From Candidatus Latescibacterota bacterium (lineage in GTDB: Bacteria > Latescibacterota > UBA2968 > UBA8231), in the NCBI GenBank assembly GCA_965204725.1, contig OZ242005.1, forward strand, positions 864,001 through 928,000: DNA of 64,000 nt, written 5' to 3'. This document shows, in pieces, positions 28,340 through 53,057 of the stretch; within the stretch, counting starts at the first letter, position 1, and each line of letters starts with the position of its first letter. The translations under genes were made by a program, and so were the position numbers. Below the pieces are notes generated by a model, which worked only from the letters and a program-made list of their open reading frames with translations, was not told the DNA's origin and did not search any database.

Positions 28340-30682
28340 ATGAATTTTCGCATGGCCCTCGTCGCTGTCTTGATCTTGGGCGGCAGCCATCGGCTAGCGG
28401 CCGATCAACTGCGCTACGACTCGGTGCGCGACTGGCGGCAATGGAATCTGCCCTTGGGCGCAGTGGAACTGACGGCCGAGGGCGTGATCCAGCCCACCCG
28501 AATTGAGAAGCGGACCGACGCTGTGCGCGACCTAGCGGCCTTCGACGGGGGCATCCGCGACGCCGGATCCAATCGCGCCGCAGCCCGCTTCGCGACCGAC
28601 GGCAACCCGGAGACCGGCTGGGCACCCCGCCCAACGGACGACCCCGAAGACTGGTTTATCGAGATCGACTTGGGCCGCGCGGTCTCGGCTCACAGCGTTA
28701 CTTTGGTCTTTGACGCGGAGGCTCCGCCCTTTGCGCTGTTCGACCTCTTGCTTTCGACCGGCGAGCCGGAGACCGACTTTATCGCCGCACCCATTGAAGG
28801 CTCCCTCGTCTATCGCGTCAAAGAGCGCTTCAAGGAAAACGACCTCCACCGCTTGACCTACCAAATAGCGCACATCGACCAAGAACCGATCCAGTTCATC
28901 CGCTTCGAGCCGCTGCTTTTAGTGCCCGATGCCCGCCTCGTTGAGGTCGAGGTCGAGGCCATCGGCGACAACATCGCCCTCGGCCTTTTGGAGCGCGGCG
29001 GCGGCGTTGACATCAACATCAATCTCGCCAGCAACGATTCCCAGCCCCTCGGCAAAGCAAGAGCGCTCTTTGACGGCGACCTGTACGAGCGCTGGCGTGC
29101 GGGCACGGCGTCTAGAGGCCAAGTTGACATCCTCGCCCATATAGTTCTCGACTTAGGTGCGGTTTACTGGGTCGATCAAACGAGAATCATCGGCGGGGTG
29201 GTGGTGCGCTCCGGCTTTGGCGGCGGCATTACCACTAGACACTATGTCTCGCGCCGGCGGTGGGGCTTTCGCTTCTACGAGCTGATGACCTCAGACGGCT
29301 CGCTGTCGCCCGATGGAACCCGCCTGTGGACCAAGCACTTTTCCGGGGCCTCGCCCGGGGAGCAGACTTCCAAGGGTCTAGTGGATCATCACTTCGACCT
29401 GCTGCCGACGCGCTTCGTGCGCATCTTCTGGAAGTACTGGGACACCAGTTGCTTTTCCTTGCAGCGGCTCGGGGAGGAGGGCGGCATCAACAAAGTCCCC
29501 GGCTGTGGCGCGGGTGGAGAAACCGACGAGATTCAGATTTTCGGCCAAGGGTTTCCGGCCGAAGTCGGCTTCCGCTCGCCCCTGCTCGACTTGGGCGAGG
29601 ACAAGAACTTCAACTCGATAGAATGGGGCGGCGACCAGCCGCCGGGCACCCTGATCGAAATCCGCACCCGCACGGGCAACGAAATTTTGCAGACCTATAC
29701 CTACCACGACAAAAACGGCAAGGAAGTCTCCGAGCGGAAGTTCAACCGGCTCATCCCCAGTTTCAAGGGACCGATCGACACCTCCTTCGCGGCCGGCGGC
29801 GATTGGAGTGCTTGGAGCCGGCTTTATAGCTTCTCCGGCGATGCCTTTCTCTCGCCCTCGCCGCGCCGCTACATGGAGATCGACGTCAAGCTAGTCTCTA
29901 ACCAACCCGACCGGGCCGCTACGCTCGACTTCCTGACCATCCATTCCACTCCGCCGCTGGCCAGCCGGGTGCTGGGCGAAATTTCCCCTCAGCAGGCCCA
30001 GCCGGGCGTGCCGACCGAGTTCACCTATTACTTGCAGCCCGAAAACGCCCGCGGCTTCGACCGCCTCTCCGTTGAGTCGGACACCCCGGTGCAATTTACC
30101 AGCGTCGCGCACAATGGCACCGCGCTCGACGCGCAGATAGACACCACGACGAGCGGTTTCCGAGTCCATCTGCCCAACCGCATCCGCACCGATTCGCTCA
30201 TCGAGCTAAAGTTTGAATCCTCGGTGTTCCGGCAATCGACGCGCTTCGACGTCTTTTTGCAGGACAGCCGACAAGACGAGAGCGTGCGCCAGCGAGTCGA
30301 TCCGGGCGATGCCACCGACTTGGTCGCGAGCAACACCAACGTCGTCAGCTTGCCGGTCTCTCAGGAGCTACTCGCCAACATATCCCTCTCGTCCAAGGCG
30401 ATTACCCCCAACGGCGACGGGATCAACGACGACCTGACACTGGAGATCTCGCTGGTCAATGTGCTCGCGCCGCGCCCCCTGCGGCTCCGCTTGTACGACC
30501 TCGCCGGCCGCCTCGTGGGCGATCGCAGCGAAGACAGCCGCGCCGGCCCGCAAGAAATCGTCTGGGATGGCCGCGACAGCCACGGCGAGCGCGTGGCCCC
30601 GGGCCTGTACGTGCTCGAAGTGCTCGTCGAGGGCGACGCGGGCGATGCGAAAGCGCAAGTACTCGTGGCCGTAGCCTACTAG
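28340..30682 (+). CDS. Secreted protein paralog A1: discoidin-like domains + C-terminal FlgD/CHU_C-like domain
   Basis: Signal peptide; DGNPETGW..IDLG; WSAWSRLY..SPSPRRY; ITPNGDGIND..YDLAGR..WDGRD..PGLY; ends VAVAY. Confidence 0.85.
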   Translation: MNFRMALVAVLILGGSHRLAADQLRYDSVRDWRQWNLPLGAVELTAEGVIQPTRIEKRTDAVRDLAAFDGGIRDAGSNRAAARFATDGNPETGWAPRPTDDPEDWFIEIDLGRAVSAHSVTLVFDAEAPPFALFDLLLSTGEPETDFIAAPIEGSLVYRVKERFKENDLHRLTYQIAHIDQEPIQFIRFEPLLLVPDARLVEVEVEAIGDNIALGLLERGGGVDININLASNDSQPLGKARALFDGDLYERWRAGTASRGQVDILAHIVLDLGAVYWVDQTRIIGGVVVRSGFGGGITTRHYVSRRRWGFRFYELMTSDGSLSPDGTRLWTKHFSGASPGEQTSKGLVDHHFDLLPTRFVRIFWKYWDTSCFSLQRLGEEGGINKVPGCGAGGETDEIQIFGQGFPAEVGFRSPLLDLGEDKNFNSIEWGGDQPPGTLIEIRTRTGNEILQTYTYHDKNGKEVSERKFNRLIPSFKGPIDTSFAAGGDWSAWSRLYSFSGDAFLSPSPRRYMEIDVKLVSNQPDRAATLDFLTIHSTPPLASRVLGEISPQQAQPGVPTEFTYYLQPENARGFDRLSVESDTPVQFTSVAHNGTALDAQIDTTTSGFRVHLPNRIRTDSLIELKFESSVFRQSTRFDVFLQDSRQDESVRQRVDPGDATDLVASNTNVVSLPVSQELLANISLSSKAITPNGDGINDDLTLEISLVNVLAPRPLRLRLYDLAGRLVGDRSEDSRAGPQEIVWDGRDSHGERVAPGLYVLEVLVEGDAGDAKAQVLVAVAY

Positions 30683-30821
30683 AAGCGGGCAAAAAATTCT
30701 TGACAGCCAAGCGCATATTTATTTGTTTACCCAACTATTATGAGAAAAAAGTCGCAAAAAATCGCCGCGGAAAGGAGGTCTGAAAAACCAACTGCTGCAC
30801 TCTTGAAAACCTCGTATTTCC

Positions 30822-30856
30822 GCCCGCTCCAGAAGCCACAGCGGGCCTTTTCTTCT
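30822..30856 (+). terminator. Possible intrinsic terminator/attenuator in the leader of the 30898 gene
   Basis: gcccgct-N11-agcgggc followed by ctttttcttct-like pyrimidine run. Confidence 0.35.
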
Positions 30857-30897: not shown

Positions 30898-31812
30898 ATG
30901 CGCAAAGTCCTAGCGTTGAACCTAGGCGTCTTGCTCGTCGCCGGTGCTGCCTTCGCGCAGGAGCCGGCCGAAGTACCGCTCTTCTTCGCCGTGGGGATCC
31001 CCAGCAACGCCCTGCCCACCATCGACGGCGACAATGCCGACTGGGCTTGGGTCGATCGCAGCTTTGAGGTCACCATCGAAGACATGAACCCGCTGACCGG
31101 CGGTGCCGACGATGCCGACGACCTGTTCATCGACCTGATCATCGGCTGGAGCGATGCCAACAACCGCATTCACGCCATGATTCACGTCCACGACGACTTC
31201 CTAATCGTCGATAAGAACCCCGCCTGCACGTTCCGCGACGACAACTGCGAAGTGCATTTCGATCCCGACAACCAAGGCGGCGGCCCGTACTCGGCGCCCA
31301 ACGACCAAGACTTGCAGCCGGCCTATCAGATGTGCCTGAGCTTCTCCGAGCAGTTCTCGCGCGTCCAAATGTACAACGGCGCGCTGGGCAATTTCGAGCA
31401 GGACGCCCTGAATTTCTGGTGGACCCACACCGACTTCGTAGAAGCCGGTCAAGTCAACACCGGCCAAGAGTACTACTACGAGTTCAGCGCCGAGCTGATG
31501 GACCCGATCTCGATCAGCGGCGGCCCAGACGCCAGCACCGTGTGGACGCTCGCGGCCGAGCAGACCATCGGCATGTCGATCTCGGTTGACGACGCCGACG
31601 AAGGGCTCAACGCCAACGGCAACGATCCGCTCTCTGAGGATTGCTGCGAGAACGGTTTCTTCTGGCAGGCCCAGTACAGCATGGCCGAGCAGTTTATGAA
31701 CAGCGGCGGCATGCCCGATGTCTTCCTGACGCAGATCGCAGAAGGCGCCGATACGTCGGTCGAGGACAACTCTTGGGGCCAAATCAAGGCGCTGGTAGGC
31801 GAAGAGCTCTAA
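30898..31812 (+). CDS. Secreted CBM9/DOMON-like acidic protein with SWGQIK tail
   Basis: GAGGAGG RBS; signal peptide; PTIDGDNADW..GWSD..VHDD..DNCEVHFDPD..YEF..IGMSISVDDAD; ends TSVEDNSWGQIKALV. Confidence 0.8.
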   Translation: MRKVLALNLGVLLVAGAAFAQEPAEVPLFFAVGIPSNALPTIDGDNADWAWVDRSFEVTIEDMNPLTGGADDADDLFIDLIIGWSDANNRIHAMIHVHDDFLIVDKNPACTFRDDNCEVHFDPDNQGGGPYSAPNDQDLQPAYQMCLSFSEQFSRVQMYNGALGNFEQDALNFWWTHTDFVEAGQVNTGQEYYYEFSAELMDPISISGGPDASTVWTLAAEQTIGMSISVDDADEGLNANGNDPLSEDCCENGFFWQAQYSMAEQFMNSGGMPDVFLTQIAEGADTSVEDNSWGQIKALVGEEL

Positions 31813-31852: not shown

Positions 31853-31890
31853 ACAAGGGGAGGGGGAAAGGATTCCCCTCCCCTTGTTTT
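31853..31890 (+). terminator. Rho-independent terminator
   Basis: acaaggggagggggaa..ttcccctccccttgt followed by tttt, directly after the 30898 gene. Confidence 0.8.
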
Positions 31891-31919: not shown

Positions 31920-33719
31920 ATGTGCATAAAGCGATTTAGGCTGTTGATCTGCATTCTGTTGAGTGCTAAGGCGGCCGGTGCTGTCGAGGTGTGGACCGCG
32001 GGCGGCTCTGGCTTTGCTTGGGACGATGTCGGCGAACTGACGGGGCTTACCACCGACGAATTCGTCCTGCTCCCGGCCGTAGTCGATTCAACGACCAATG
32101 CCGTCGAAAACCTCACTCTCAAGCGGCGAGGGGGCGCGATCTCCTCACCGCAGTCGCGTGAGGACCTAACGGGCCTGCTCACCGACGGCAATGCCGAGAC
32201 CTTCTGGCGCGTCACCCGCGAGCGCCGCCCCGACGGCACTTCCATGCTCATCGACTTAGGCGCGATCCTGCCGATCAACCGCATTCGCTTTCAGGGCAAC
32301 CCCGACATCTTCCTTCGCGCCTATGAGCTTTTTGTTCACGACGGCAACCCCGCGCAACTGCGCGAGGACCGCCCGATTGCCTTCATCAATCAAGTCAGTG
32401 CCAACCTCGAACAGAGCGAATCGGAGATCGACGCGCACATCCCCCTCCAGTTTGTGCGGTTCATCCGCCTAATTAGCCGCTCGGGCCAAGAGTTCATCAT
32501 CGAGGAAGCCGAGGTCTTTGGCGACGGCTTCGCGCCCACCGGCAGCTATCTCTCCCAAGTCATCGACCTCGGGGAGGCGGCCAACTTCGGCCAACTCCGC
32601 TTGCAGACGCGCTCCGACCCCCTGACCAACGTGGTATTGCAAACGCGCACGGGCACGGTGCCCGACCCCAAAATCTACTACCGCAAAACCGAGGTCTTTG
32701 AGGGCGAGGATCGGCAGGAAGAGGCTATCTTGCCGATTGGCTCGCCCGAGGCGGCCGACGAATACGACGATCTGACCTCGTCCAACAAGGGCGCGATTAT
32801 CGACAATATCGACGAGTGGAGCCCTTGGTCGGCCCCTTATGAGGATTTTTTCGGCGATTTACTGTCCCCGGGCAACCGCCGCTACGTCCAGTTCCGCCTG
32901 TTGTTTTCGTCCGAGGACGCGCGCCAGTCGGCCCTTGTCGATTCGTTTTCCTTTGACTATTCGGTGCCGACGCTGGCCGAAGAGCTGACGGCCGAAGTCA
33001 CGCCGGCAACCGTTACCCTCGGCGAGAGCAACACCTTTGACTACTACATCCGCTCGACCTTCGGCCCGGCCAACGACGGGTTCGACCGCGTGGAAATCCG
33101 CACGCCTTTCAAGGCGACGGTCCATAGCGTCGAATTGGACGGGGAGCCGGTGGCCTTTACCGAAGCGGACGCGCAGGACGACAGCCGACTGGCCATCCAA
33201 CTGACGGGCGATCGCGTGACCGAATCGGGGCAGCTTTTGCGCATCCGCTTCGAGGCCATGGTGACCGTCTATGGCACCACGTTTTTCGCCAAGGTTTTCG
33301 ACAGCCAAACCGGCGAACTCGGCCAAGACGTGGTGCCCGGCGACGCCAGCCCTGAAGCCGAGGCCGATCGCTTGTCCATCCAAGGCGCATTGCGCCAAGA
33401 GCTAGTCCTCGAATTGAAGGCCGATCCGCCGGTATTCAGTCCCAACGGCGATGGGATTAACGACCAACTACAAGTATCCTATATCTTGCTGCGCGCCCTC
33501 TCGCAGGTGCCGGCCGACCTCATCGTGTACGACCTCGCCGGCCGGCCGGTGCGACGCCTGCAAAAAAGCGGCGCGCTCAACGGGCCGCAGCACGTGCCTT
33601 GGGACGGCTTGGACGAGAGCGGCGGCATCGCGCCGCCCGGGCTCTACATCCTGCGGCTTTCCATTGATACGGATACCGGCTCTGAAGACCGGTCGCTGCT
33701 GGTGGGGCTGGCGTACTGA
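31920..33719 (+). CDS. Secreted protein paralog B1 with C-terminal FlgD/CHU_C-like domain
   Basis: DGNAETFW..IDLG; WSPWSAPY..SPGNRRYVQF; FSPNGDGIND..YDLAGR..WDG..PGLY; ends VGLAY. Confidence 0.85.
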   Translation: MCIKRFRLLICILLSAKAAGAVEVWTAGGSGFAWDDVGELTGLTTDEFVLLPAVVDSTTNAVENLTLKRRGGAISSPQSREDLTGLLTDGNAETFWRVTRERRPDGTSMLIDLGAILPINRIRFQGNPDIFLRAYELFVHDGNPAQLREDRPIAFINQVSANLEQSESEIDAHIPLQFVRFIRLISRSGQEFIIEEAEVFGDGFAPTGSYLSQVIDLGEAANFGQLRLQTRSDPLTNVVLQTRTGTVPDPKIYYRKTEVFEGEDRQEEAILPIGSPEAADEYDDLTSSNKGAIIDNIDEWSPWSAPYEDFFGDLLSPGNRRYVQFRLLFSSEDARQSALVDSFSFDYSVPTLAEELTAEVTPATVTLGESNTFDYYIRSTFGPANDGFDRVEIRTPFKATVHSVELDGEPVAFTEADAQDDSRLAIQLTGDRVTESGQLLRIRFEAMVTVYGTTFFAKVFDSQTGELGQDVVPGDASPEAEADRLSIQGALRQELVLELKADPPVFSPNGDGINDQLQVSYILLRALSQVPADLIVYDLAGRPVRRLQKSGALNGPQHVPWDGLDESGGIAPPGLYILRLSIDTDTGSEDRSLLVGLAY

Positions 33720-33758: not shown

Positions 33759-36128
33759 ATGACAATCACTGGCGCGTTATGCCTCGTTATGGCGTTGGGC
33801 AGTTTGGCCTTTGGCGAGCGCGTTTCGTTTGACACCCGCGCCGCGTGGCAGGAGTGGGCGCACCCGGTCGGCGCGGTCGAACTGCAAGCGACCGGCCGCA
33901 TTCAGCCCGTGCCCGTCCGCAAAAACATCAACGCCGTGCGCAACGCTGAGCGCTTTGGCGGCGGCATCCGCCGGGTCGGCAGCAACGCCGGCGACGCCCG
34001 CCTCATCATGGACGGCGACCCGACGACGAGCTGGGCACCCGACCCGGCCGACGGCCTTGAAAACGCGTACATCGAACTCGACTTGGGCCGCTTGGTGACG
34101 GCCTCCGAGATCGTCCTCACGTTTGACGAGGCCGCGCCGCCCTTTGAATTTTTCAACATTCTGCTGTCGAGCGGCGAGAAGTTCTTTACCAACGCCTTAG
34201 TGCCTGTGGAGGGCACCCTCGGATACGGCCTGTCCAAGGGCATTGGCTTCAACGACCGCCACGAGCTCGTCCTCGACCCCCGCCAGCGCACCTTGGGCGT
34301 GAGCGCGGCCGGGTCCGACGACATTGGCGGCGGCTTTGTCGAGGGCACGGTGCGCGAGTTCAAGGAATCTTCGGGCCTCGTCCGCATCATTCGCATTGAG
34401 TTGGCCAAGTTCGTCGAGGGCGCTGGCCTAGCCGAAATCTCGGTCTCCACCATCGGCGACAACATCGCCCTCGGGATCATTGAGCGCGGCGGCAACATCG
34501 AGCTCATCACCGACTTGCAGGCCGTGCTCTCCGGCGGCGAAAACATGGTCGATGGCGATATTGTCACCAACTGGGGCATGCAGACCTACCACCAGACCCA
34601 GACCGGCTTCGACATCTTCAATCGCATCATCTTCGACTTAGGAGCCCATTACTGGATCGACCAAATCCGCATCATCGGCGAGCCGGCCGGTGCCCCGTCG
34701 CGCATTCGCAGCCGCTACGCCAACTTCTTCTGGTATCAGCTCCTCGCTTCCGACGGGTCCATCGCCCCGGACGGCACCCTGAATTTTCACGAGATCGCCT
34801 TTGTGGACGACAGCCCCCTGAACGAGACGACGATCCGCAACTTCGACCACCAATTCAGCTTGCAGAAAATCCGCTACATCAAGCACTACTTCCCGTCCTC
34901 CCGCCACGGCGGCGAGCGCACCGGCACCCACGGCACGTACCGCCTCTTTGCCCTGATTAGCGAGTTCCAGATCTACGGCGAGGGCTTTCCGGCCGAGTTG
35001 CAGCTCACCTCGCCGATCCTCGACCTCGGCCAAGCCAAGGCCCTGACCTCGGTTGAGTGGGACGCCGAAATCCCGCCCGGTACGCGCATTGAGTTGCGCA
35101 GCCGCACCGGCGGCGAAGTCGTTGAGAATGTTCACTACTTCGACAAGAAGGGCAAAGAGATCACCGAGCGGAAATGGAACAAGACGCCCAAGACCCTGCG
35201 CGGGCCGACCAAAACCACGATTTCCGTCGGCTCGGACTGGAGCGTCTGGAGCGATCCGTACGTGACGTCGGGGGCGCTGTTTAGCTCGCCCTCGCCGCGC
35301 CGCTATGTCCGGCTCGACCTGCGCCTGATTTCGGACGATCCCAATGCGGCCCCGGCGATCAACGCCCTGCACTTGAACGCGGAAAACCCCATTGCCCTCC
35401 AAACCCGCGCCGAAGTCTTTCCCAGTATCGTCGAGCCGGGCGTCAAAAAGGATTTTACGTATTTTGTCCTGCCCACCTTTGGCGGGCGCTCGCAGGGCTT
35501 TGACCGCCTGACCATGGTCGCGTCCGTGCCCGTTGATTTTACCAGTCTGAAGTTGGGCGACGAGCCGGTGGAGGCCGCAATCACCGCGGTTGCCGACGGG
35601 TTTGTCGTCGATCTACCGGCCACCGTCCGCCGCTCCGAGCTCATCGAGCTCTCGTTCAGCAGCACCATTTACCAAAACCAGACGCGCTTCGATCTCTTTC
35701 TCGGCAACAGCAACCTCGGCCAAGACGTGCGCCAACTCGTCGACCAAGGCGACGCCAAAGCCGATGTGCCGAGCGAATCCGTGTCAGTGCAACTGCCGGT
35801 CAACGACCTCCTACTCGCCAACGTAGCCCTTTCGACGCCCGTGCTAACGCCCAATGGCGATGGGGTCGGCGACGAGCTGGTCATTGAATTCGACGCGCTC
35901 AAGTTGGTGACGCCGCGCCCCGTGCGGGTCCACATCTACGACCTCGCCGGTCGCAAGGTGCGCGTCCTCGACAGCGGCGCGGGGCTGGCTCGGCGCTACC
36001 GCTTCACTTGGAACGGGCGCGACCACGCCGGGGCGCTCGTGCGGCCGGGGACCTATCTAGCCCAGATCGAAATCGCCGGCGACTCCCAGACCGAGACGGT
36101 GCAGCGGATAGTGCCGGTGGCCTACTGA
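33759..36128 (+). CDS. Secreted protein paralog A2 with C-terminal FlgD/CHU_C-like domain
   Basis: Colinear with 28340..30682 (GGGIRRVGSN, IGDNIALG, FDLGAHYWID, SPSPRRY); LTPNGDG; ends VPVAY. Confidence 0.85.
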   Translation: MTITGALCLVMALGSLAFGERVSFDTRAAWQEWAHPVGAVELQATGRIQPVPVRKNINAVRNAERFGGGIRRVGSNAGDARLIMDGDPTTSWAPDPADGLENAYIELDLGRLVTASEIVLTFDEAAPPFEFFNILLSSGEKFFTNALVPVEGTLGYGLSKGIGFNDRHELVLDPRQRTLGVSAAGSDDIGGGFVEGTVREFKESSGLVRIIRIELAKFVEGAGLAEISVSTIGDNIALGIIERGGNIELITDLQAVLSGGENMVDGDIVTNWGMQTYHQTQTGFDIFNRIIFDLGAHYWIDQIRIIGEPAGAPSRIRSRYANFFWYQLLASDGSIAPDGTLNFHEIAFVDDSPLNETTIRNFDHQFSLQKIRYIKHYFPSSRHGGERTGTHGTYRLFALISEFQIYGEGFPAELQLTSPILDLGQAKALTSVEWDAEIPPGTRIELRSRTGGEVVENVHYFDKKGKEITERKWNKTPKTLRGPTKTTISVGSDWSVWSDPYVTSGALFSSPSPRRYVRLDLRLISDDPNAAPAINALHLNAENPIALQTRAEVFPSIVEPGVKKDFTYFVLPTFGGRSQGFDRLTMVASVPVDFTSLKLGDEPVEAAITAVADGFVVDLPATVRRSELIELSFSSTIYQNQTRFDLFLGNSNLGQDVRQLVDQGDAKADVPSESVSVQLPVNDLLLANVALSTPVLTPNGDGVGDELVIEFDALKLVTPRPVRVHIYDLAGRKVRVLDSGAGLARRYRFTWNGRDHAGALVRPGTYLAQIEIAGDSQTETVQRIVPVAY

Positions 36129-36168: not shown

Positions 36169-37953
36169 ATGACCCGTGCCGCACTCGCATTAGCCTGCCT
36201 AGCGATGGGATACAACACGCCAGCCGCGGCCGCGGAACGGCTCAAAATAGGCGGCGATGGGCTGGAGTGGGAGAGCAACTCGCTCGTGTTCAACGCCCTC
36301 GAAGTCACCGCCGAGGGGGGGCTCTCGCCGTTGGAGGCCGACCCGGAGGAAAACATCCTGCCGCGCATCAAGGAGCTCGGCGGCAGCGCGACCACCTCGG
36401 TGCGCACGGCCGCGGCCCGCTCCAACCAGATACTCAACGAACTCATCGACGGCTCCCACACCACGGGTTGGCGCGTGTACACCAACCCCAACGGGGCCGA
36501 ACTCGAAGTCGATATGGGGGCGATTTTCGTCTTGCAACGCATCCGCCTATTGCGCGGCGTCCTCAACGACGACGAGCGCTCGTTGCGCGGCTACGAGTTC
36601 TACGTCAACGACGGCGATTCGCTCAATTTCGTCGGCGGCAATCCCGTGTACGCGCTCATCGCCCAAGACCGCTCGCACGGCCTGCCCGAGCTGGACTTGA
36701 GCTTCCCGCCGACGCAGGTGCGCTTTTTTAGGCTGCGCAGCACGGGCGAACGCGGCTTCCAAATGGGCGACCTCGAAGTATTCGGCGTGGGCGTCACGCC
36801 CTTTGCCCAGTACATATCCCAAGTCATCGACCTAGGGGAAGCGGCCAACTTCGGGCCGGTTGACGTGTACAGCCGCCTCTACGGCGCGGCCCAAGCGCAA
36901 TTCAGCACCAAGACCGGCTTTGTCGCCACGGACTCGCTCTACTTCCGCCAGACGGGCATTCCCGGGGAATTGGCGGAAGTGGCCCTAGCGGATTTCGATC
37001 GCACGCTCGACCCCTCGTATGCCGGCGTCATTCTCGAAAACGACCGCGACTGGAGCGCGTGGTCCCCGCCCTACGCCGAGTCGGTCCGCTCGTCGATCCA
37101 TTCGCCCGACAACCGGCGCTACCTCCAGTTCCAGTTCAAGCTCCTGTCGAATAGCTTGCTCGACAAAGCCGTCATCGACTCGGTGGTCTTCAACTACACG
37201 GTGCCGGCGCTGGCCGATTCAGTAGTCGCCGAAATCAGCCCGACGACCGCGACCCTCGGGCAGGAGAACGAGTTTACCTATCACCTGCGCTCGGTCGTCT
37301 CGGGCGGCCATCGCGGCTTTGACACCGCCATTATCCACACTCCGTTTGCGGCCCGCGCCACGGGCGTCCGCGTCGATGGCGTGGAGATCGACAACTTCAC
37401 ATCGGAGTTCGCTTCGGGCCGCTTACAGGTCCGCTTCCCGGACGCCCGCATTACCCGCAGTGGGCAAGAAGTCGCCGTGCGCTTCGTCTGCTTGGTAACC
37501 GTCTCGGGCACGGAGTTTCGCGGCGAGGTCGCCGACAGCCAGTCCGATGCGTTTCCGCAGCGCGTCGCTTTTGGCGACGCGGCCGAGGAAGCCGCCGACA
37601 ACACGCTCGTCGTCAGCGCCCGCATCGACGAAGAGCTCTTCACCGGCGTCGCGTTCTCGTCCGCCGTGATCACACCCAATGGCGACCAGATCAACGACCG
37701 GATCACCCTCGACTACATCCTGCTCAAGGCGACCCACGAGGTCGCAGTCGAGGTCGTCGCGTACGACTTGAGCGGTCGGCCGGTGCATCGCCTGTACCAA
37801 GCCCGCGATCGCTCCGGCCCCAACCAAGTGAGTTGGGATGGCCGCGACGACGCCGGGGCCGTGGTGCCGCCGGGTATGTACTTGCTTCGTCTCGAGGCCG
37901 CCACCGACGCCGGCATCGCCACGCAAATGCGGAGCATTGCCGTAGTATATTGA
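36169..37953 (+). CDS. Secreted protein paralog B2 with C-terminal FlgD/CHU_C-like domain
   Basis: Colinear with 31920..33719 (SQVIDLGEAANFG identical; WSAWSPPY..SPDNRRYLQF); ITPNGDQIND; ends IAVVY. Confidence 0.85.
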   Translation: MTRAALALACLAMGYNTPAAAAERLKIGGDGLEWESNSLVFNALEVTAEGGLSPLEADPEENILPRIKELGGSATTSVRTAAARSNQILNELIDGSHTTGWRVYTNPNGAELEVDMGAIFVLQRIRLLRGVLNDDERSLRGYEFYVNDGDSLNFVGGNPVYALIAQDRSHGLPELDLSFPPTQVRFFRLRSTGERGFQMGDLEVFGVGVTPFAQYISQVIDLGEAANFGPVDVYSRLYGAAQAQFSTKTGFVATDSLYFRQTGIPGELAEVALADFDRTLDPSYAGVILENDRDWSAWSPPYAESVRSSIHSPDNRRYLQFQFKLLSNSLLDKAVIDSVVFNYTVPALADSVVAEISPTTATLGQENEFTYHLRSVVSGGHRGFDTAIIHTPFAARATGVRVDGVEIDNFTSEFASGRLQVRFPDARITRSGQEVAVRFVCLVTVSGTEFRGEVADSQSDAFPQRVAFGDAAEEAADNTLVVSARIDEELFTGVAFSSAVITPNGDQINDRITLDYILLKATHEVAVEVVAYDLSGRPVHRLYQARDRSGPNQVSWDGRDDAGAVVPPGMYLLRLEAATDAGIATQMRSIAVVY

Positions 37954-45800: not shown

Positions 45801-47422
45801 TCTACCGCCTGCCGCGCGACACCCCGCCCTTGTACGAGGGGGGCCTCATCCGCGACCGCGCTTGGCGCGGGATGCAGGATTCCATCTTGGACTACGTGCA
45901 GAGCGCCTTCGGCGACCGCGCCTTGGTCGTGCCGCGCGCCTGGTACTTGTCGCCGGTCGAATCCGAGCGGGCCTTTATCGACTTTGCCGCCACCGCGACC
46001 GGCGCGACCAGTTTTGTCCACGGCTTGGTGGGCCTGCAGCCGGCCGAAGCCCAAGTAACGGGCCTCGACGCGCACCTGTCGGCCGGCCGCTTCTTCGCGG
46101 CGGGCGACGACCGGGCCGTCATCTTGCCCGACAGCCTAGCCGCGCTCGTCGGCATTGGGGCCGCAGAGGTGGGCACCGCGACTATCGAACTCTACGGCGA
46201 GGAGTACCGAGTCATCGGCTTGTTCGACAGCGCAGCCCTGAAAGAAGTGGTCGATCTCGACGGCGAGCGGCTAACGCCTGTGGACACGGTCAAAGACGCC
46301 GGGCTTATCGTGCGAGAGAGCACCGAAGACCCGCGCACCCTAGCCGCGACCGCAGTTGAGACCTTCAACCACCTCGAAGTGGTCAACACCCTCTTCTTGC
46401 CCTATCAGCGCGTCCGCGCCATGGACGGCCGTTTGCGCTCCATCGCCATTGCCGCCGACGCAGACGACCCGGAATTCGTCCGGCGCGTAGAGTCCTTTAT
46501 GTCGCGGGTGGCCCTGACCCTGTTCGTCGGCCAAGGCGATCGCGTCGTGGCGTACAGCTCAATTGGCTCCACCGAAATAAGCGGGGCCGGTCAGCTTTTG
46601 GTGCCCGTGATCATCGCCGCCTTGATCGTGCTCAATACCATGATGGGGGCCGTGTATGAGCGCGTGCGCGAGATCGGCATCTATAGCGTCGTGGGCTTGG
46701 CCCCCAGCCACATCGGCCTGCTGTTCTTGGCCGAATCCACGGTCTTTGCCACCTTTGGCGCGGTGGTCGGCTACGCCTTGGGCCAAATCGCCCACCTGTT
46801 CATGCTGCAATACGGGCTGCTCGCCGGCCTGACGCTCAACTACTCGTCGCTTTCGGCCGTGTGGGCTACGGTCGTCGTCATCGGCACGGTCTATTTATCG
46901 ACCTTGTATCCCGCACGCTTGGCGGCCAACATGGCCGTCCCCGACGTGACGCGGCAATGGCAATTCCCCCCGCCCGTGGGCGATCACTGGCGCTTTGACT
47001 TTCCCTTTACGGTCGGCGGGGCCGAGGTGCCGAGCATGTACGCGTATCTCAAGTCGGTCTTTGTCGCGTACGGCGAAGGCTCCATCGGCGACTTCATCGC
47101 CCGCGACGTCGAGCTATCCATCGCCACCGACGGGCCGGAGCCATCCTACGCCATTGCCATGCGGACTTGGCTGGCCCCCTACGACCTAGGCATCAGCCAA
47201 AAGGTGCGCTTGCAGGCGACGCCCACCGGCGAGCACCGCATCTACAAGATCGAGACTCACATCGAGCGCCTCAGCGGCGACGTGGCCTCTTGGCAGCGCA
47301 TGAATCGCAAGTTCCTCAACGTGCTCCGCAAGCGCTTCCTCGTGTGGCGCACCCTGTCGCCGGGAATTCGCCAAGGGTATCGGGACGAGGCGGAACAGGC
47401 GTTTGCCGAGGCGGGGCCGTAG
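42836..47422 (+). CDS. Giant M28-peptidase-like / FtsX(MacB)-like permease fusion
   Basis: SRVTGYAG, AHYD..APGAENATG (M28-like); ISNLSKRRLRTALT and NTMMGAVYERVREIGIYSVVGLAP..FLAES (FtsX TM domain); 1528 aa. Confidence 0.85.
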   Translation: MLTKFLLAATAAFFLLSVTAFDPATISRWLEQAIGWEPLREAPPTAQASSLREAVAQINAADLARHLRVLTADSSRVTGYAGAARAARYIDGEFRRLGLQVTSEFFPVSVPLDRGGRLRLIGSDETIPIYGLWPNHVRSPSLSPGGVSGPLIDLGRGRLAEMDGKRLAGSIALMGFGSGNAHVQARALGVQAILLYDDGRVTRSEAAEKFLQVPVDIPRFWLEAAGAQFLRQQARTGDVEVHLEARMDWTSVQARNLFAVLPGLAEDMPRGQRREIERWSDQIIVLQAHYDAISVVPALAPGAENATGMAALLEIARLLVAEGTRYTVLFLATPGHFQGLAGVNDFLYRHARESEHFRDQIPPAERIDFRLFVGLDLASHSPRVGSFTMGTFYNSAWRNDDYQKNLMAHYAARFGRYNREIFADSTRYQDAIAPQKRVWKNFMPVRLALDSEAAAFVGKEALSFVTPNQLRQRVDTPLDRLEFVALDNLAEQTRTLAGLMLKAASDPDFFNDTKLTLRDWGHRLEGNIYWFDRDVNFAVPKAPVPKALVTYLQPGPNSVAGVRTLIATHGDENGYFEFDIVRNRFANRIQAFELDEYGRIVSAPDLGEEGDKTYPGTQPYGWWENRMLQVLFRCRALSFLEVVDPRYLSAMDRVNVLGTNDAPPRSFSLNYIENQSAAQDRVVQAGVVFAEPGTRVKILAGESAFGGENALAGVRYMLTNADSALFTDLDPARVDLATIERAQGEGFPIEQGLIPYPALQAARDLWIIDEARIKQMVRHGIVLEQLQAMHEQAREALLAAGDKLAAFDYTGYQRAVRRALGLEARIYPEVKATANDAVRAVIFYFALLLPFAFFCERFFFGFPDVRRQIAGFVGIFVLVFLILRFVHPAFKLSTSPYIIFLAFVILALGVLVIFIVVTRFKGLLQRRKGAAAGMHETDVGRVAAGFAAVLLGISNLSKRRLRTALTAATLTFLTFTVNSFTSVKSSLDFYRLPRDTPPLYEGGLIRDRAWRGMQDSILDYVQSAFGDRALVVPRAWYLSPVESERAFIDFAATATGATSFVHGLVGLQPAEAQVTGLDAHLSAGRFFAAGDDRAVILPDSLAALVGIGAAEVGTATIELYGEEYRVIGLFDSAALKEVVDLDGERLTPVDTVKDAGLIVRESTEDPRTLAATAVETFNHLEVVNTLFLPYQRVRAMDGRLRSIAIAADADDPEFVRRVESFMSRVALTLFVGQGDRVVAYSSIGSTEISGAGQLLVPVIIAALIVLNTMMGAVYERVREIGIYSVVGLAPSHIGLLFLAESTVFATFGAVVGYALGQIAHLFMLQYGLLAGLTLNYSSLSAVWATVVVIGTVYLSTLYPARLAANMAVPDVTRQWQFPPPVGDHWRFDFPFTVGGAEVPSMYAYLKSVFVAYGEGSIGDFIARDVELSIATDGPEPSYAIAMRTWLAPYDLGISQKVRLQATPTGEHRIYKIETHIERLSGDVASWQRMNRKFLNVLRKRFLVWRTLSPGIRQGYRDEAEQAFAEAGP

Positions 47423-47431: not shown

Positions 47432-48427
47432 GTGCGCGAAAAGCCACCCTATACCATCGCGGCGGATATTCTTTTTCGCATTGAACAGATCGGCGAAGCG
47501 ATTGGCCGGGCCGAGGCCGCGGGCCTTGCACGGGATTTGCGCTTGCGGCGCATCAATCGCATCCGCACAATTTGTGGCTCGCTCGCCATTGAAGGCAACA
47601 TCCTCAGCGAGGAGCAAATCTCCACGATTCTCGACGGCAAGCCCGTCGTCGCCCCCCCGCGAGACATTCGGGAAGTCCGCAACGCCATTGCGGCCTACGA
47701 TCAATACCAGCAATGCAGCCCCGCCAGCGAGGCCGACCTTTTACGCATGCACGAAATTTTGCTGACCGGCTTATTGGACGCGCCCGGACAGTATCGCCGC
47801 ACTGGCATTGGCGTTATGGGCGGCGGCCAAGTCCATCACGTCGGCCCGCCCGCCCAGCGTGTACCGCAACTCATGGCGAATTTGTTGGCATGGCTGGGCA
47901 GCACCGATGAGCATCCGCTCATTGCCAGTTCGGTCTTCCACTACGAGTTCGAGTTCATTCACCCTTTTGAGGACGGCAATGGGCGGATGGGGCGGCTCTG
48001 GCAGACGCTGATTCTGACCCGCTGGAAACCCCTGTTCGCCCACATCCCGGTGGAGAGCATGGTAAACATTCGCCAAGGCGACTACTACGAAGCGATCCGG
48101 CAGAGTTCGGCCGCCGGTGAGAGTACACCGTTTATTGGGTTCATGCTGGACATCATTCTGGAGGCCCTCCAATCTTCCGCAATAAGCGACCAAGTAAGCG
48201 ACCAAGTAAGCGACCAAGTAGCGCGGCTCCTCAAGGCACTGCGGACCGGCCCGAAAACCGCCGCTGAACTCATGGCGGCTCTGGGGCTGGCGCATCGTCC
48301 TACACTCCGCAAAAACTACATTCGCCCGGCCCTAGCCGCCGGGCTGGTGGAAATGACCCGCCCGGAATCGCCCACTGCGAAAAACCAAAAGTATCGGCTC
48401 ACTACACGCGGGCGGGAGATGCGCTGA
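47432..48427 (+). CDS. Fic-family protein with C-terminal HTH
   Basis: SLAIEGN; HPFEDGNGRMGR Fic motif; tail PESPTAKNQKYRLT. Confidence 0.92.
   Translation: MREKPPYTIAADILFRIEQIGEAIGRAEAAGLARDLRLRRINRIRTICGSLAIEGNILSEEQISTILDGKPVVAPPRDIREVRNAIAAYDQYQQCSPASEADLLRMHEILLTGLLDAPGQYRRTGIGVMGGGQVHHVGPPAQRVPQLMANLLAWLGSTDEHPLIASSVFHYEFEFIHPFEDGNGRMGRLWQTLILTRWKPLFAHIPVESMVNIRQGDYYEAIRQSSAAGESTPFIGFMLDIILEALQSSAISDQVSDQVSDQVARLLKALRTGPKTAAELMAALGLAHRPTLRKNYIRPALAAGLVEMTRPESPTAKNQKYRLTTRGREMR
48185..48220 (+). repeat. 12-bp tandem repeat x3 (SDQV linker) in Fic
   Basis: agcgaccaagta three exact copies. Confidence 0.95.
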
Positions 48428-49160: not shown

Positions 49161-51071
49161 ATGACCGCACGCGCCTTCCTCATCGGCTTGGGCCTCGTGG
49201 TCCTGATCAACATTGGGGCCCCGTACAGCATGTTCATCCTCAAGTCCTCGCAGTGGGCGATCAGCTACCTGCCCTTGAGCGTCGTCTTTCTCTTTACCGC
49301 CTTAGTCTTTCTCAACGCCACGGCCAAGTCGCTGCTCAAAGTGCGCGGCCTGAGCACCAGCGAGCTCGGCCTCGTCTTTACCATGTCCTTAGTCGGGGCC
49401 TCGATTCCCACTTGGGGCACCTCCACGTACATGATCGCGGTCATCGCCGCTCCCCAGTACTTTGCCTCGCCTGAGAATCAGTGGCAGAGCAAGGTCGTCC
49501 AATACATTGAGGAATGGCTCGTGCCCAACGACGCGATTGCCCTCAAGTGGTTTTACAACGGCCTGCCCGCCGGCGAATCCATCCCTTGGGGTGCTTGGAT
49601 CGGGCCGCTTTTTTGGTGGACCAGCTTGGTCATGGCCATCTTCTTTTTGTGTCAGTGCATGGTCGCCGCCCTGCGCAAGCAGTGGGTTGAGTACGAGCGC
49701 CTGCCCTTCGCCCTGATGGAGTTGCCCCAACAACTCATCGACCCGCCGCGCGGCTCGAACTGGCCCGGTTTCGTGCGCCAAAAGGCGTTTTGGTTCGGCT
49801 TTGCCCTGCCCTTCTGCATGGTTATGTGGAACGTGGTCACCTACTTTACTCCGGCCTTTCCGCCTATCCCCCGCGACCTGTCCGACCCCATCCGCATTGG
49901 CCGCGAATTTCCCGCCATTCACACCAACGTCAACTGGGCCATCGTCGGCTTTGCGTACTTCGTCAACCTCGACGTGTCGTTCAGCATGTGGTTCTTCACC
50001 GCGCTCACCATGCTGCAACAGGGGCTGTTCAATCGCTTCGGCTACACCCTTCCCGGCCGCGACGTGTACACCCTCGGGCATCCCGGCATTGGCTGGCAGT
50101 CTTTCGGTGCCCTGATCGCCCTCGTCGCCGGCATGCTGTGGATGGCGCGTGGGCACCTCGGCGCGATCTGGCGCAAAGCGGTGTACAACGATGCGGACAT
50201 CGACGACGCAGACGAGCTGATGTCCTATCGGATGATCGTCTTTGGCGGCGGGCTGGCCCTGCTCTACATCGCCTTTTGGATGGGGCGGGCCGGCATGAAC
50301 CTGCCCACCATCGCGCTCTTTATCTTGGCGACCTTGGTCCTCTACGTCGGCATTACGCGCATCATCATGGAGGGCGGCTTGCTCTTCAGCCGCGCCCCGC
50401 TCGTCGGCCAGACCTTCGTCGGGTACGCGCTCGGGCCGCACGCCACCGCGCAGAGCAACATCGCCCTGGGGCTGTCCTACGGCTGGCACCACGAGCTCAA
50501 GGGCTTTTTCATGGTCGCCGCGGCCAACAGCGCCAAAGTGGCCGGCTCCATCCGCGGCAACCGCCGCTATCTGAGCTTCTACATCCTCCTCTCGGCACTG
50601 GTGGCCCTCGTCGTCTCCATGGCCTTCGCGCTCTACATGGGCTATTCCTTTGGCGCGTACAACTACGGGGGCTGGATCTTCGGCACAGGCTCGCAAGTGC
50701 CCTACGTGGAAAGCCTGCGTAAAATCGATCTCAAGGCCCCGGATTGGACGCGGTTGGGCCACCTCGTCAGCGGCGCGGGCGCGATGGGGCTTTTGACCTT
50801 TATGCGCTACCGCTTCTCGTGGTGGCCCCTACACCCCATTGGCATGCCGGTCGGCATCTGTTCCTACCCCATGACCATTATCGTCTTTTCGATCTTCGTC
50901 TCGTGGCTGGCCAAATGGGCCATCATGCGCTCGGGCGGCATCGGCCTCTATCACCGCGCCCAACCCTTCTTCATCGGCCTCATCCTCGGGTACTTCACCG
51001 CGATTGGCCTGTCCTTTTGCATCGACATGATTTGGTTCCCCGGGCAAGGGCACCCGCTATACGGAAACTAG
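49161..51071 (+). CDS. DUF6785/DUF6784-like polytopic membrane protein (OPT-related)
   Basis: RKQWVEYERLPFAL, many TM helices, RYRFSWWPLHPIG, WLAKW..GGIGLY..PFFIGLILG. Confidence 0.75.
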   Translation: MTARAFLIGLGLVVLINIGAPYSMFILKSSQWAISYLPLSVVFLFTALVFLNATAKSLLKVRGLSTSELGLVFTMSLVGASIPTWGTSTYMIAVIAAPQYFASPENQWQSKVVQYIEEWLVPNDAIALKWFYNGLPAGESIPWGAWIGPLFWWTSLVMAIFFLCQCMVAALRKQWVEYERLPFALMELPQQLIDPPRGSNWPGFVRQKAFWFGFALPFCMVMWNVVTYFTPAFPPIPRDLSDPIRIGREFPAIHTNVNWAIVGFAYFVNLDVSFSMWFFTALTMLQQGLFNRFGYTLPGRDVYTLGHPGIGWQSFGALIALVAGMLWMARGHLGAIWRKAVYNDADIDDADELMSYRMIVFGGGLALLYIAFWMGRAGMNLPTIALFILATLVLYVGITRIIMEGGLLFSRAPLVGQTFVGYALGPHATAQSNIALGLSYGWHHELKGFFMVAAANSAKVAGSIRGNRRYLSFYILLSALVALVVSMAFALYMGYSFGAYNYGGWIFGTGSQVPYVESLRKIDLKAPDWTRLGHLVSGAGAMGLLTFMRYRFSWWPLHPIGMPVGICSYPMTIIVFSIFVSWLAKWAIMRSGGIGLYHRAQPFFIGLILGYFTAIGLSFCIDMIWFPGQGHPLYGN

Positions 51072-51074
51072 CGC

Positions 51075-53057
51075 ATGGCTCAAGACGACAAAAAATCACC
51101 TGAGCTGATTCCCGCGGACCTCAAATTCGAGCCGGGTTTTAACGTCAAGACCTTGTGGGCCGCGCTCTTCGTCGGCTTCATCATGCTGCCCGGGGCCATC
51201 TACTTGGGGCTGGTAACCGGCCAAAGCATGGCGGGCGGCGCCGAGTGGGTGACGCTGATCCTCTTCATCGAAATCGCCAAGCGCTCCTTTGCCCGGCTGC
51301 GCACCCAAGAGGTGATCATTCTCTACTGGGTGGCCGGCGGCTTGGTCGTGATGGGCGGCAAGCTGGGCACTGGGGCCGAGCTGTTTGGCGGGCCTTTTGG
51401 CGGGCTGATCTGGGACCAGTACTTGATTCAATCGCCCCAAGCCGACGGCTTGCACCAGTACATCCCCGATTGGGTGGTGCCACCGCGCGGCTCGCCGGCC
51501 CTAGCCGGACGCTCCTTTTTGCACCCCGATTGGATCAAGCCCATCGCCCTCCTGCTGACCGTCATCGTCATGCAGAAGGTCAACAGCCTGTCCTTGGGCT
51601 ACGTGCTCTTTCGCGTCACCAACGACATCGAGCGCCTGCCGTACCCGCTGGCCGCAGTGCAGGCCGGCGGCGCCACCGCCCTCGCCGAGAGCTCCGGGCC
51701 GAGCCAAGGCTGGCGATGGGAAGTCTTTAGCGTCGGGGCCTTTATCGGCATTGTCTGGGGGCTGTTCTACGTGGTCATCCCCACGATTTCGGGCATTTTC
51801 TTTACCGAAACGGTGACCATCCTGCCGATTCCGTTCATCGACCTGACCGTTTCGATCAAGGAAATGCTGCCGGCGAGCATCATGGGTATTGGCACGGACT
51901 TAGGGCACGTCATGGTCGGCTTTGTCCTGCCCTTTTGGATTGTGGTCGGCTCCTTTGCCGCCGCCTTCCTCGTCAACCTCCTCGTCAATCCGGTGCTCTA
52001 CGCATACGACGTGCTGCACACTTGGGAGCCGGGCATGTCGGCGATCCCAACGCAGATCGCCAACTCCTTCGACTTCTGGCTCAGCTTCTCCATTGGCGGC
52101 GCGGTCGTCGTGGCCCTGATGGGTTTTGCCATGGTCGGCAAGACCTTGTGGACTTTGCGCGGGGTCAAGCGCGCCGAAGACGACGAGCACCTAACCGAGG
52201 GCCGCGGCGACATCCCCATCCCCCTCGCCTTGGGCGTCTGGGCGGTGAGTACGCTCGGCTTCGTGGTTTTGGTGTGGTATTTGGTGCCGGAATTTCCCTG
52301 GTGGATCAGCGCGTTCTTCGGCTTTGTGTGGACGCCGATTTACTCGTACATCGGAGCGCGTATGATCGGCCTGACCGGCTCGCCGCAAGGAGCGTCCTTC
52401 CCCTATCTGCGCGAAGGCTCCTTTTACCTGTCGGGCTATCAGGGCGCGGCCGTGTGGTTCGCGCCGATTCCGCTCTTCCAGTGGGGGTACGAAGCGGCGG
52501 CCTTCAAGCAACTAGAACTGACCCGCACGCACTTCGGCAGCATCGTCAAGCTGGCCGGCGTCACCTTGCTGATCATGTTCGTCTGCTCGTTTGTGTTCTG
52601 GTCTTTTATCTGGAAGTTGGGGCCGATTCCCTCGGCGGCCTATCCCTACGTGCAAAAGTTTTGGCCCTTTCACGCCACCATGCAGGCGTTCTGGGCCAAA
52701 TCGACCCTCGCCGAGGGAGGCAACGAGCTGATCAAGACCATCATTCGCTGGGAATACGTGCTCACCGGCGCGCTGGGCAGCGCGGGGATTTTGGGCGCGT
52801 TGGCCCTGGTGCGCTGGCCGGTCGCCCTGTTTTACGGATTCATCGGCGGCGTGGGCGCATGGCCGCACTTTCTGCTGCCCAACTTCATCGGCGCGTTGCT
52901 GGGCCGCTATCACTTGCAGAAGCGTTTTGGCGCGGCGCGCTGGCGGGCTTACGCGCCGATTCTCTTGGCGGGCTATTCGTGCGGGATGGGATTGGTCGGC
53001 ATGTCTTCCATCGCGCTGGCACTGATTTCCAAAGCGGTGTCGAGCATTGTGTTTTGA
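51075..53057 (+). CDS. OPT-like peptide transporter
   Basis: MLPGAIYLGL..EWVTLILF, DIERLPYPLA, PIPSAAYPY..WP, PILLAGYSCGMG; about 16 TM segments. Confidence 0.75.
   Translation: MAQDDKKSPELIPADLKFEPGFNVKTLWAALFVGFIMLPGAIYLGLVTGQSMAGGAEWVTLILFIEIAKRSFARLRTQEVIILYWVAGGLVVMGGKLGTGAELFGGPFGGLIWDQYLIQSPQADGLHQYIPDWVVPPRGSPALAGRSFLHPDWIKPIALLLTVIVMQKVNSLSLGYVLFRVTNDIERLPYPLAAVQAGGATALAESSGPSQGWRWEVFSVGAFIGIVWGLFYVVIPTISGIFFTETVTILPIPFIDLTVSIKEMLPASIMGIGTDLGHVMVGFVLPFWIVVGSFAAAFLVNLLVNPVLYAYDVLHTWEPGMSAIPTQIANSFDFWLSFSIGGAVVVALMGFAMVGKTLWTLRGVKRAEDDEHLTEGRGDIPIPLALGVWAVSTLGFVVLVWYLVPEFPWWISAFFGFVWTPIYSYIGARMIGLTGSPQGASFPYLREGSFYLSGYQGAAVWFAPIPLFQWGYEAAAFKQLELTRTHFGSIVKLAGVTLLIMFVCSFVFWSFIWKLGPIPSAAYPYVQKFWPFHATMQAFWAKSTLAEGGNELIKTIIRWEYVLTGALGSAGILGALALVRWPVALFYGFIGGVGAWPHFLLPNFIGALLGRYHLQKRFGAARWRAYAPILLAGYSCGMGLVGMSSIALALISKAVSSIVF

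Follow-up and report, generated by a model that had tools for sequence, protein, structure and literature searches.

When a long run of co-oriented genes for cell-envelope proteins is found in a bacterial genome, does it encode one machine, or several systems that stand side by side? This question is raised by a locus in the marine genome of Candidatus Latescibacterota bacterium (GenBank assembly GCA_965204725.1, contig OZ242005.1), which belongs to a widespread and uncultured phylum; we know of no account of its cell surface. The stretch of DNA analyzed here (hereafter the window) comprises 64,000 nucleotides, positions 864,001 to 928,000 of the contig, and coordinates given below without a contig label are those of the window. 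A first-pass annotation had proposed that the genes between positions 28340 and 53057 form one integrated, multi-component machine. On the basis of current results, the multi-component envelope character is supported for both halves of the locus, and the integration is not: the surface block and the FtsX/transporter block come apart in relatives and in paralogous loci. We consider it fairly probable that the locus consists of two separate envelope modules placed side by side, that is, a surface module of discoidin-type proteins (D) with a predicted barrel (B) and an inner-membrane module of an M28-like/FtsX fusion protein (X) with two polytopic proteins (T and U), plus a mobile insert of toxin-antitoxin type. 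For the surface half, the best reading is by analogy: a new and much expanded version of the arrangement of type-B cargo and partner barrel known from type IX secretion systems (T9SS).

The span from D1 to U (28340-53057) contained 14 open reading frames (ORFs), as seen in the ORF listing and translations. All eleven genes of the first-pass annotation were found on the + strand where it had placed them, with one corrected start (S begins at 40598 and overlaps the B stop codon); its total of eleven falls short of the ORFs present in the span. These are, with lengths in amino acids (aa) and CTD standing for C-terminal domain:

28340..30682, + strand, D1, long discoidin-type surface protein, 780 aa, type-B-like CTD (F5_F8_type_C, CHU_C and FlgD_ig)
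30898..31812, + strand, C, secreted CBM9/DOMON-like protein, 304 aa (CBM9_1)
31920..33719, + strand, D2, short discoidin-type surface protein, 599 aa, type-B-like CTD (Pfam and translation)
33759..36128, + strand, D3, long discoidin-type surface protein, 789 aa, type-B-like CTD (F5_F8_type_C, CHU_C and FlgD_ig)
36169..37953, + strand, D4, short discoidin-type surface protein, 594 aa, type-B-like CTD (Pfam and structure model)
37995..40610, + strand, B, predicted outer-membrane barrel of an undescribed family, 871 aa (structure model; no Pfam or NCBIfam match)
40598..41905, + strand, S, lipoprotein, 435 aa, weakly SurA-N/EpsD-like (TIGR02925 below cut-off; lipobox in translation)
41936..42700, + strand, L, lipoprotein, 254 aa, no family match in Pfam or NCBIfam
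42836..47422, + strand, X, 1528 aa, PA/M28-like periplasmic head and MacB/FtsX-type membrane domain (Pfam and PDB sequence matches)
47432..48427, + strand, Fic-domain gene, variable insertion (Pfam Fic and Fic-like_C)
48502-48756, + strand, 84-aa ORF, weakly Phd/YefM-like (E 7e-4, below cut-off)
48759-49139, + strand, PIN-domain gene (62.5 bits), VapBC-like pair with the 84-aa ORF
49161..51071, + strand, T, polytopic membrane protein with DUF6785 and DUF6784, 636 aa (Pfam, 371 and 87 bits)
51075..53057, + strand, U, polytopic protein, 660 aa, distant homologue of T by hhalign (no Pfam match)

Module 1 spans 28340-42700, its accessory genes reaching back to about 20000, and about 28 copies of it exist per genome; module 2 (42836-53057) is an inner-membrane set. 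Their separate nature was seen from both sides. Among 57 X loci from species-representative genomes, T or U was present within 10 kb of X in 55 (one miss was a 4.5-kb contig). B and D were present within 10 kb of X in 11 of the 57 loci, all belonging to the orthologue group of the window, and in none of the 43 X loci outside this group. One locus (L091) contains X-T-U at 67% X identity and lacks both B and D within 10 kb. Two sister families (f2 and f4) contributed five genomes in which X is directly followed by U, and in these no D, C, B, S or L was found in the 20 kb upstream of X. All 16 sampled genomes of families f2, f3 and f4 hold X-U and 18-28 DUF6785 matches, despite having no B or D. 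Seen from the barrels, X lies within 20 kb of only 1 of the 28 B loci in this genome (null 1.3). Because X-T/U occurs without B-D in deeper loci, in sister families and in L091, we read the B-D/X-T-U adjacency as a lineage-specific arrangement. A functional link of the modules at this one locus is possible.

To characterize the surface module, paralogues were counted by tblastn of the window proteins against their own 5.43-Mb genome. These counts (paralogues, the 28 B loci and D genes upstream of B) are independent of our gene caller, which misses or mis-strands some genes; the neighbor-cluster, tail-class and 5.67% figures given below are approximate. In total, 39 B-type ORFs were identified at 25-45% identity and grouped into 28 loci, together with 91 D genes, B and D making up 5.67% of the genome. 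The other families gave 23 (C), 21 (S), 13 (L), 33 (T) and 5 (U) matches, and X occurred at 6 loci. When the families near the 28 B loci were compared with a null of random placement, D lay within 10 kb of all 28 loci (null mean 9.7), C of 19 (2.5), S of 17 (2.3) and L of 11 (1.4). The usual gene order begins with C and L, continues with two short D and a long one, and ends with one or two B and then S; a D gene stands immediately upstream and on the same strand of 24 of the 39 B ORFs, and a further 6 B follow a tandem B. The earlier proposal of a functional analogy to Sus systems and polysaccharide utilization loci (PULs) holds for the surface half as a repeated, PUL-like locus type. Examination of 106 neighbor proteins from 10 paralogous loci revealed ABC sugar/peptide importers and sugar-catabolic enzymes, and degradative enzymes were not enriched. 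Because hydrolases were nearly absent among them (a single one of GH99-like type, plus a single M19 dipeptidase), the D-B loci are not classical PULs, and this candidate was rejected.

The four D proteins are indeed paralogous, secreted and discoidin-like, as had been proposed, and fall by size into a long pair (D1 and D3, 780 and 789 aa) and a short pair (D2 and D4, 599 and 594 aa). D1 (40.8 bits) and D3 (32.3 bits) scored over the Pfam cut-off of F5/8 type C (28.2), and D2 (23.7 bits) and D4 (26.2 bits) were just below it; in the genome, 8 of the 23 short-D members matched this family at E<=0.01. The structural model of D4 (pLDDT 85.5) shows four all-beta domains, namely a discoidin-type domain, a second sandwich, an Ig-like domain and the tail, and no catalytic domain was seen in it. 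In a Foldseek search this model resembled PorU, adhesins of the Ig type and galactose oxidase, whose N-terminal domain is itself discoidin-like.

The suggestion that the D proteins carry a C-terminal surface tag is in line with the FlgD_ig/CHU_C-type tails present on all four. The CHU_C (PF13585) scores were 26.5 (D1), 22.1 (D2), 28.8 (D3) and 22.8 bits (D4), with a cut-off of 27, and FlgD_ig gave 24.6 (D1) and 31.4 bits (D3). CHU_C matched 22 of the 23 short-D members at E<=0.01 (best 1.7e-9), and the type-A model TIGR04183 had no match in the D proteins. The tail is more conserved among D paralogues (38.6% identity) than the three body domains (27-30%). We also scanned the last 130 residues of all own gene calls of this genome for tail motifs. 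A strict TPNGDGxND-type (type-B-like) motif was found in 69 ORFs, all of them of the D family, and a degenerate form in 22 further D members. The NPFNP-type (type-A-like) motif was found in 68 ORFs, 63 of which were outside the D family. The two classes differed in their location: 48 of the 69 type-B-like ORFs, vs 7 of the 68 type-A-like ORFs, lay within 10 kb of a B gene. The window itself contains two unrelated proteins with type-A-like tails, a di-haem cytochrome c peroxidase/MauG-like protein (25482-27101), whose tail matches TIGR04183 over cut-off, and a DUF2330 protein (59781-61631). Since type-A-like tails sit on unrelated proteins beside the type-B-like tails of D, both tail classes appear to be used by this genome.

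Structural modeling agreed with the earlier description of B as a probable beta-barrel and gave a large barrel (pLDDT 74.9, pTM 0.70) with ~26 long strands and a beta-sandwich inserted at roughly 258-360. The Asp/Asn-rich loop 484-575 was modeled at low confidence, and invariant acidic (Asp/Asn) columns occur at 487-569 across 35 homologues; the N-terminal stretch 41-80 is conserved and has no confident model. B matched no family in Pfam (at E<=0.01) or NCBIfam, including Plug and TonB-dependent receptor models. Foldseek returned generic barrels only (TM<=0.28), the best rows being Deinococcus SlpA/SDBC barrels (E 4e-9 to 5e-9, TM-scores 0.19-0.27). VIA-align also returned generic barrels (top Z 13.8 on small porins, with high rmsd). 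These generic fold matches include SlpA, MtrB, LptD, FimD and porins, and the rows of TonB-dependent transporters (Z 9-11, rmsd 9-10) were the same as those of unrelated barrels. All 30 of the nearest Atlas clusters were unnamed, DUF6029 (at 0.89) being a lead only. A B profile search of 1.84 billion representatives recovered 1065 members at E<=1e-3. B is not a member of PorP/SprF because it has no Pfam match; a genome-wide search for PorP_SprF was empty, and its control was likewise silent. Behind one divergent B paralogue (28% identity, 1036 aa; G000:C1:92000-110000, L053) come a TPR protein of 1090 aa and ExbB-ExbD-ExbD, which points to a link of at least one barrel with a proton-motive-force transducer.

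Core T9SS components could be identified in this genome. SprA_N scored over cut-off in a 2198-aa ORF, PorU reached 623 bits (cut-off 420), and a PorV-like gene adjoining PorU reached 150 bits, below its cut-off of 250. We then examined B, D and PorU in the same 168 genomes of the phylum and found B in 107, D in 103 and PorU over cut-off in 105. In the family of the window (f1), B and D were each present in 75 of 75 genomes, and no B, D or PorU over cut-off was found in families f2 (0/31), f3 (0/3) and f4 (0/22), members of the class that also includes f1. In the phylum as a whole, the families that have B, D and canonical PorU are the same, with two exceptions, f14 (described below) and f8, whose single genome has B without D. 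It should be noted that related genomes are not independent, and the genome counts therefore overstate the support, which amounts to about a dozen family-level observations. Families f2 and f4 contain a PorU-related protein and no canonical PorU, B or D: ORFs of ~1900 aa (for example, G035:C1:4187008-4189167) match positions 5-737 only of the PorU model at ~270 bits, which is sub-threshold.

In Bacteroidota, according to passages of PMC9143113, type-B cargo binds PorP-like barrels and is thereby anchored at the surface, and passages of PMC12618676 describe type-B genes as often genetically linked to cognate PorP/SprF shuttles. The D-B loci resemble such pairs (SprB-SprF, PG1035-PorP) in several respects: the C-terminal domain of D matches CHU_C, the cargo gene adjoins a dedicated barrel gene, many cognate pairs occur per genome, homologues of SprA and PorU are encoded along with a PorV-like protein, and a separate type-A tail class coexists. 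They differ in the 871-aa barrel itself, with its ~26 modeled strands, inserted sandwich, acidic loop and lack of a PorP_SprF match, and in having two to four D cargos per barrel. They also differ in number (39 barrels and 91 cargos here vs the 12 type-B substrates given for F. johnsoniae in passages of PMC12618676), in tail scores near the family cut-off, and in the host phylum, which is Latescibacterota and not Bacteroidota. The first-pass view that the system is built from different parts than T9SS is not upheld for the surface half, which follows the logic of type-B cargo and partner barrel. No published text joining Latescibacter* with 'type IX secretion' was found, supplements and most subscription journals being outside the search.

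In the membrane module, the earlier description of X as a 1528-aa M28-like/FtsX fusion proved correct, both domains scoring over their Pfam cut-offs (FtsX 43.3 vs 25.5 bits; Peptidase_M28 36.9 vs 21.3 bits). The N-terminal PA/M28-like head (~800 aa) matches 2ek8 and 6hc6, with weak matches to Nicalin, and the best PDB sequence matches of the MacB/FtsX-type unit are YtrF, MacB, LolC and FtsX; three extra transmembrane (TM)-like hydrophobic segments are also present. When X was aligned to 2ek8 and 6hc6, His-Phe was found at the Glu-Glu site and Glu at the bridging Asp, positions that we take to be metal ligands and catalytic residues of the M28 fold. We read the same positions by tblastn in the X loci, 54 of 57 of which gave a match. 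The first Glu position is His in all 54 loci and the second is Phe in 53, the bridging-Asp position is Glu in 53, and only 13 loci retain the first His ligand. The full M28 two-metal ligand set plus catalytic Glu was not found in any of these 54 loci. Because the metal and catalytic positions are replaced, the X head is probably not a peptidase. In this, and in its PA/M28-like fold, which scores over the Pfam cut-off, it is similar to inactive M28-fold proteins such as Nicalin; it is unlike them in being fused to the MacB/FtsX domain of a bacterial inner-membrane protein.

With type VII ABC transporters (MacB, LolCDE, FtsEX and YtrEF), X shares the FtsX domain over cut-off, and one X paralogue matches MacB_PCD. 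Unlike them, X lacks a cognate ABC ATPase nearby, and it has the three extra TM-like segments, the ~800-aa head and a constant pairing with DUF6785-type permeases. An ABC-ATPase-like ORF (Walker A plus LSGGQ) was found within 10 kb of X in only 1 of the 57 loci, and ABC_tran was found neither among the window genes nor among 44 scanned neighbors of five other X or U loci. Thus X has no ATPase nearby, and a distant, shared ATPase is possible. The pairing with a permease was seen at all six X loci of this genome, where T lies within about 7 kb. One X paralogue is fused to its permease: a 2086-aa ORF (G000:C1:504829-511089; L054:6830-13087) contains MacB_PCD (27.2 bits vs cut-off 27), FtsX, DUF6785 and DUF6784, and a short acidic linker joins the X-type part to the permease.

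T matches DUF6785 (PF20581, 371 bits) and DUF6784 (PF20580, 87 bits) over the full length of both models, and at least 18 DUF6785 matches per genome were found in 41 of 41 related genomes. The two permeases had been described as twin, OPT-like transporters. They are not twins, since BLASTP of T vs U gave E 0.15 and only T matches DUF6785/DUF6784; profile comparison shows them to be distant homologues (hhalign 96.3%, E 1.8e-9). As to the OPT likeness, both are polytopic, and the Atlas clusters nearest U are named peptide transporters in which 15-33% of members have OPT, no more than a lead. Pfam OPT (PF03169) matched neither T nor U, nor three U paralogues, even at E<=10. U belongs to no Pfam family and its profile gave 0 matches against PDB sequences, in which T alone found chance-level matches only. 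In a 1094-aa U paralogue (G000:C1:1641507-1644791; L055:12508-15789), two PDZ domains are inserted close to the C-terminal part, which hints at peptide or protein C-termini as ligands. In addition, a 40-aa stretch at G000:C1:1063950-1064069, far from any U gene, is 95% identical to the U C-terminus and looks like a recent fragment copy. No published text mentioning DUF6785, DUF6784, PF20581 or PF20580 was found in a search that left out supplements and most subscription journals. As far as our searches show, both gene sets are undescribed in print, in agreement with the earlier remark that no characterized system has this architecture.

Of the smaller genes in the surface module, C is a CBM9/DOMON-like protein as had been noted (CBM9_1, 25.2 bits vs cut-off 23.4), and L, likewise present as noted, is a lipoprotein with no family match. 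S had been called a SurA-like lipoprotein. Its lipobox agrees with a lipoprotein, and its likeness to SurA is weak, every score being sub-threshold: TIGR02925 gave 42 bits (cut-off 108.9), SurA_N_3 E 0.015 and Rotamase_2 E 0.066, and neither a SurA N-terminal nor a parvulin domain passed its threshold in S. Several further families recur next to D-B modules. FG-GAP/UnbV_ASPIC and TPR proteins accompany them with 60 genes in 21 of 27 loci, double-rotamase peptidyl-prolyl isomerases (PPIases) form a cluster of 13 genes in 13 loci, and FGE-sulfatase-fold proteins occur in 4. Copies of all three are found at 20021-28020, upstream of the first-pass start at 28340. The window's FGE-sulfatase-fold protein gave only sub-threshold EgtB/GldK/PvdO matches in NCBIfam. 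In paralogous loci L064, L065, L066, L074 and L077, membrane proteins with PMT_2 (GT-C glycosyltransferase-like) and a C-terminal TPR part stand beside D-B modules; given their recurrence, the surface proteins might carry glycans. The features around and between the main genes are:

20021..23290, - strand, FG-GAP/UnbV_ASPIC/TPR protein, 1089 aa, in which the two partners, a protein pair in paralogous loci, are fused into one (Pfam)
23355..24989, + strand, double-rotamase PPIase, 544 aa, recurrent D-B neighbor (Pfam Rotamase_2/Rotamase; paralogues also Pfam-checked)
25482-27101, flanking the locus upstream, CCP_MauG protein with type-A-like tail (TIGR04183 over cut-off)
27085..28020, - strand, divergent from D1, FGE-sulfatase-fold protein, 311 aa, recurring in 4 loci (Pfam)
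31853..31887, + strand, terminator-like hairpin with a 15-bp stem between C and D2 (consensus match; regional site count not above shuffles)
53113..53595, - strand, DDE transposase fragment at the downstream edge of the locus (Pfam DDE_Tnp_1)

In the promoter and terminator scan of the region, the sites were not above those of shuffled sequences (1 vs 3.6 and 16 vs 19.7). Three genomes of the same genus share the order D1-C-D2-D3-D4-B-S-L-X-(insert)-T-U, of which the insert is the variable part. Among the 11 orthologous X loci carrying the B-D module, Fic was present in 2 (truncated in 1) and absent in 9, and across orthologous loci the Fic/PIN insert was in some cases complete, in others reduced to PIN or to a truncated Fic, and in others missing. 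Because its presence varies among these loci, the Fic gene, 84-aa ORF and PIN gene look like a mobile toxin-antitoxin-type insertion between X and T. Other signs of mobile DNA flank the locus, namely the DDE transposase fragment (53113-53595), a PD-(D/E)XK nuclease-family gene (15139-16434) and a PcfJ-like gene (58044-59768).

How might the two modules work? The D proteins would be exported by Sec and carried across the outer membrane by the T9SS, after which the neighboring B may receive them and hold them on the cell surface, in the role that PorP/SprF has for type-B cargo of Bacteroidota. The weakly SurA-like S and the PPIase could act as chaperones for the large barrels and cargos, and the many diverged D sets would then equip the cell with varied heads able to bind glycans or particles as ligands. 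In the inner membrane, X may be a periplasm-facing accessory, with a binding head and a MacB-type stalk, of OPT-like secondary transporters; the substrates of the X-linked T/U permeases would probably be peptides or other oligomers.

A number of observations weigh against this explanation. PorP/SprF-like proteins are much smaller than B, and B matches neither PorP_SprF (PF11751) nor any other Pfam family. The D tails of the window straddle the CHU_C cut-off (22.1-28.8 bits vs 27), the NCBIfam type-B model had no match in D1-D4 at E<=0.01, and 21 of the 69 type-B-like ORFs have no barrel within 10 kb. Of the Gld/Por K-N motor genes, GldM gave an empty genome search with its control silent too, and in family f14 PorU is over cut-off in 4 genomes out of 5, B and D being present in only 1. 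For T and U, OPT membership is drawn from Atlas look-alikes only. The remaining points concern the separateness of the modules and favor one trans-envelope capture-uptake (or export/assembly) machine of all genes from D1 to U, in which surface proteins and barrel feed X/T/U. All genes point the same way at close spacing, only 135 bp without a strong terminator-like site separate L from X, 16 of the 28 B loci have T within 20 kb (null mean 6.1, maximum 14 in 2000 placements), and X-T-U occurs at another locus of this genome at a distance of about 23 kb from barrels. D-B also stays next to X in 11 of 12 orthologous X loci with enough flank (to 63% X identity), as in the same-genus genomes mentioned above. 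Synteny of the two blocks in relatives, on which the first-pass annotation had staked this idea, was otherwise largely absent. Against a single machine stand the 43 outside X loci and L091, all free of B and D within 10 kb, the single B locus with X nearby, and the absence of B and D from all 56 genomes of f2, f3 and f4, of which the 16 sampled ones keep X-U and their DUF6785 matches; moreover, some relatives tolerate the Fic/PIN insert between X and T. We therefore regard one machine as improbable.

Within the surface half, the closest competitor of cargo anchoring is a SusCD-like import system, compatible with anchoring, in which the barrel would be a substrate channel fed by D as binding proteins. 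The D-B loci share with SusC/SusD PULs the repeated, diverged loci of a barrel with surface binding proteins, often near importers and sugar-catabolic genes, and the paralogous loci also often hold DUF6785 permeases. In addition, the D heads are lectin-like, the ~26-strand barrel is in our judgment larger than an anchor would need, and ExbB-ExbD-ExbD follows the divergent B paralogue. Unlike SusC/SusD PULs, these loci have no TonB-dependent receptor, Plug or SusD, almost no glycoside hydrolases, and surface proteins with T9SS tails instead of lipid anchors. The structural matches of B are generic, only two hydrolases were found among the 106 neighbors, and ExbBD stands beside B in only one of the loci scanned for neighbors, so this system seems unlikely, if somewhat less so than a single machine. 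A broader scheme, in which D-B is a T9SS-assembled PUL counterpart whose barrels both hold D and import captured ligand, with DUF6785-type OPT-like permeases as the inner-membrane step, the window locus as a complete outer-to-inner uptake route and X as its periplasmic bridge, appears doubtful to us. A structural surface coat or adhesin layer, with SlpA-like anchors and D as the layer and no role in nutrient capture, could explain the Deinococcus SlpA/SDBC barrels as best Foldseek rows of B, the very large coding investment in B and D, and the resemblance of D to Ig-type adhesins. The TM-scores of those rows are low (0.19-0.27), the ~28 loci with their diverged D body domains fit diversified specificity better than one lattice, and discoidin and CBM9-like domains are usually ligand-binding, which makes a coat highly improbable.

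If the T9SS-like interpretation of the surface half is true, the cargo-anchor logic of type-B substrates would reach beyond Bacteroidota, with a new and much larger partner barrel, and 39 barrels and 91 cargos at 5.7% of the genome would represent a major surface repertoire for binding marine particles or polymers. The locus also indicates that co-oriented neighbors should not be read as one machine before their paralogues and phyletic patterns have been checked. Finally, the X-T/U pairing offers a first functional handle on the uncharacterized DUF6785/DUF6784 family of Pfam, and a handle on a MacB/FtsX-type domain that seemingly works without an ATPase of its own.

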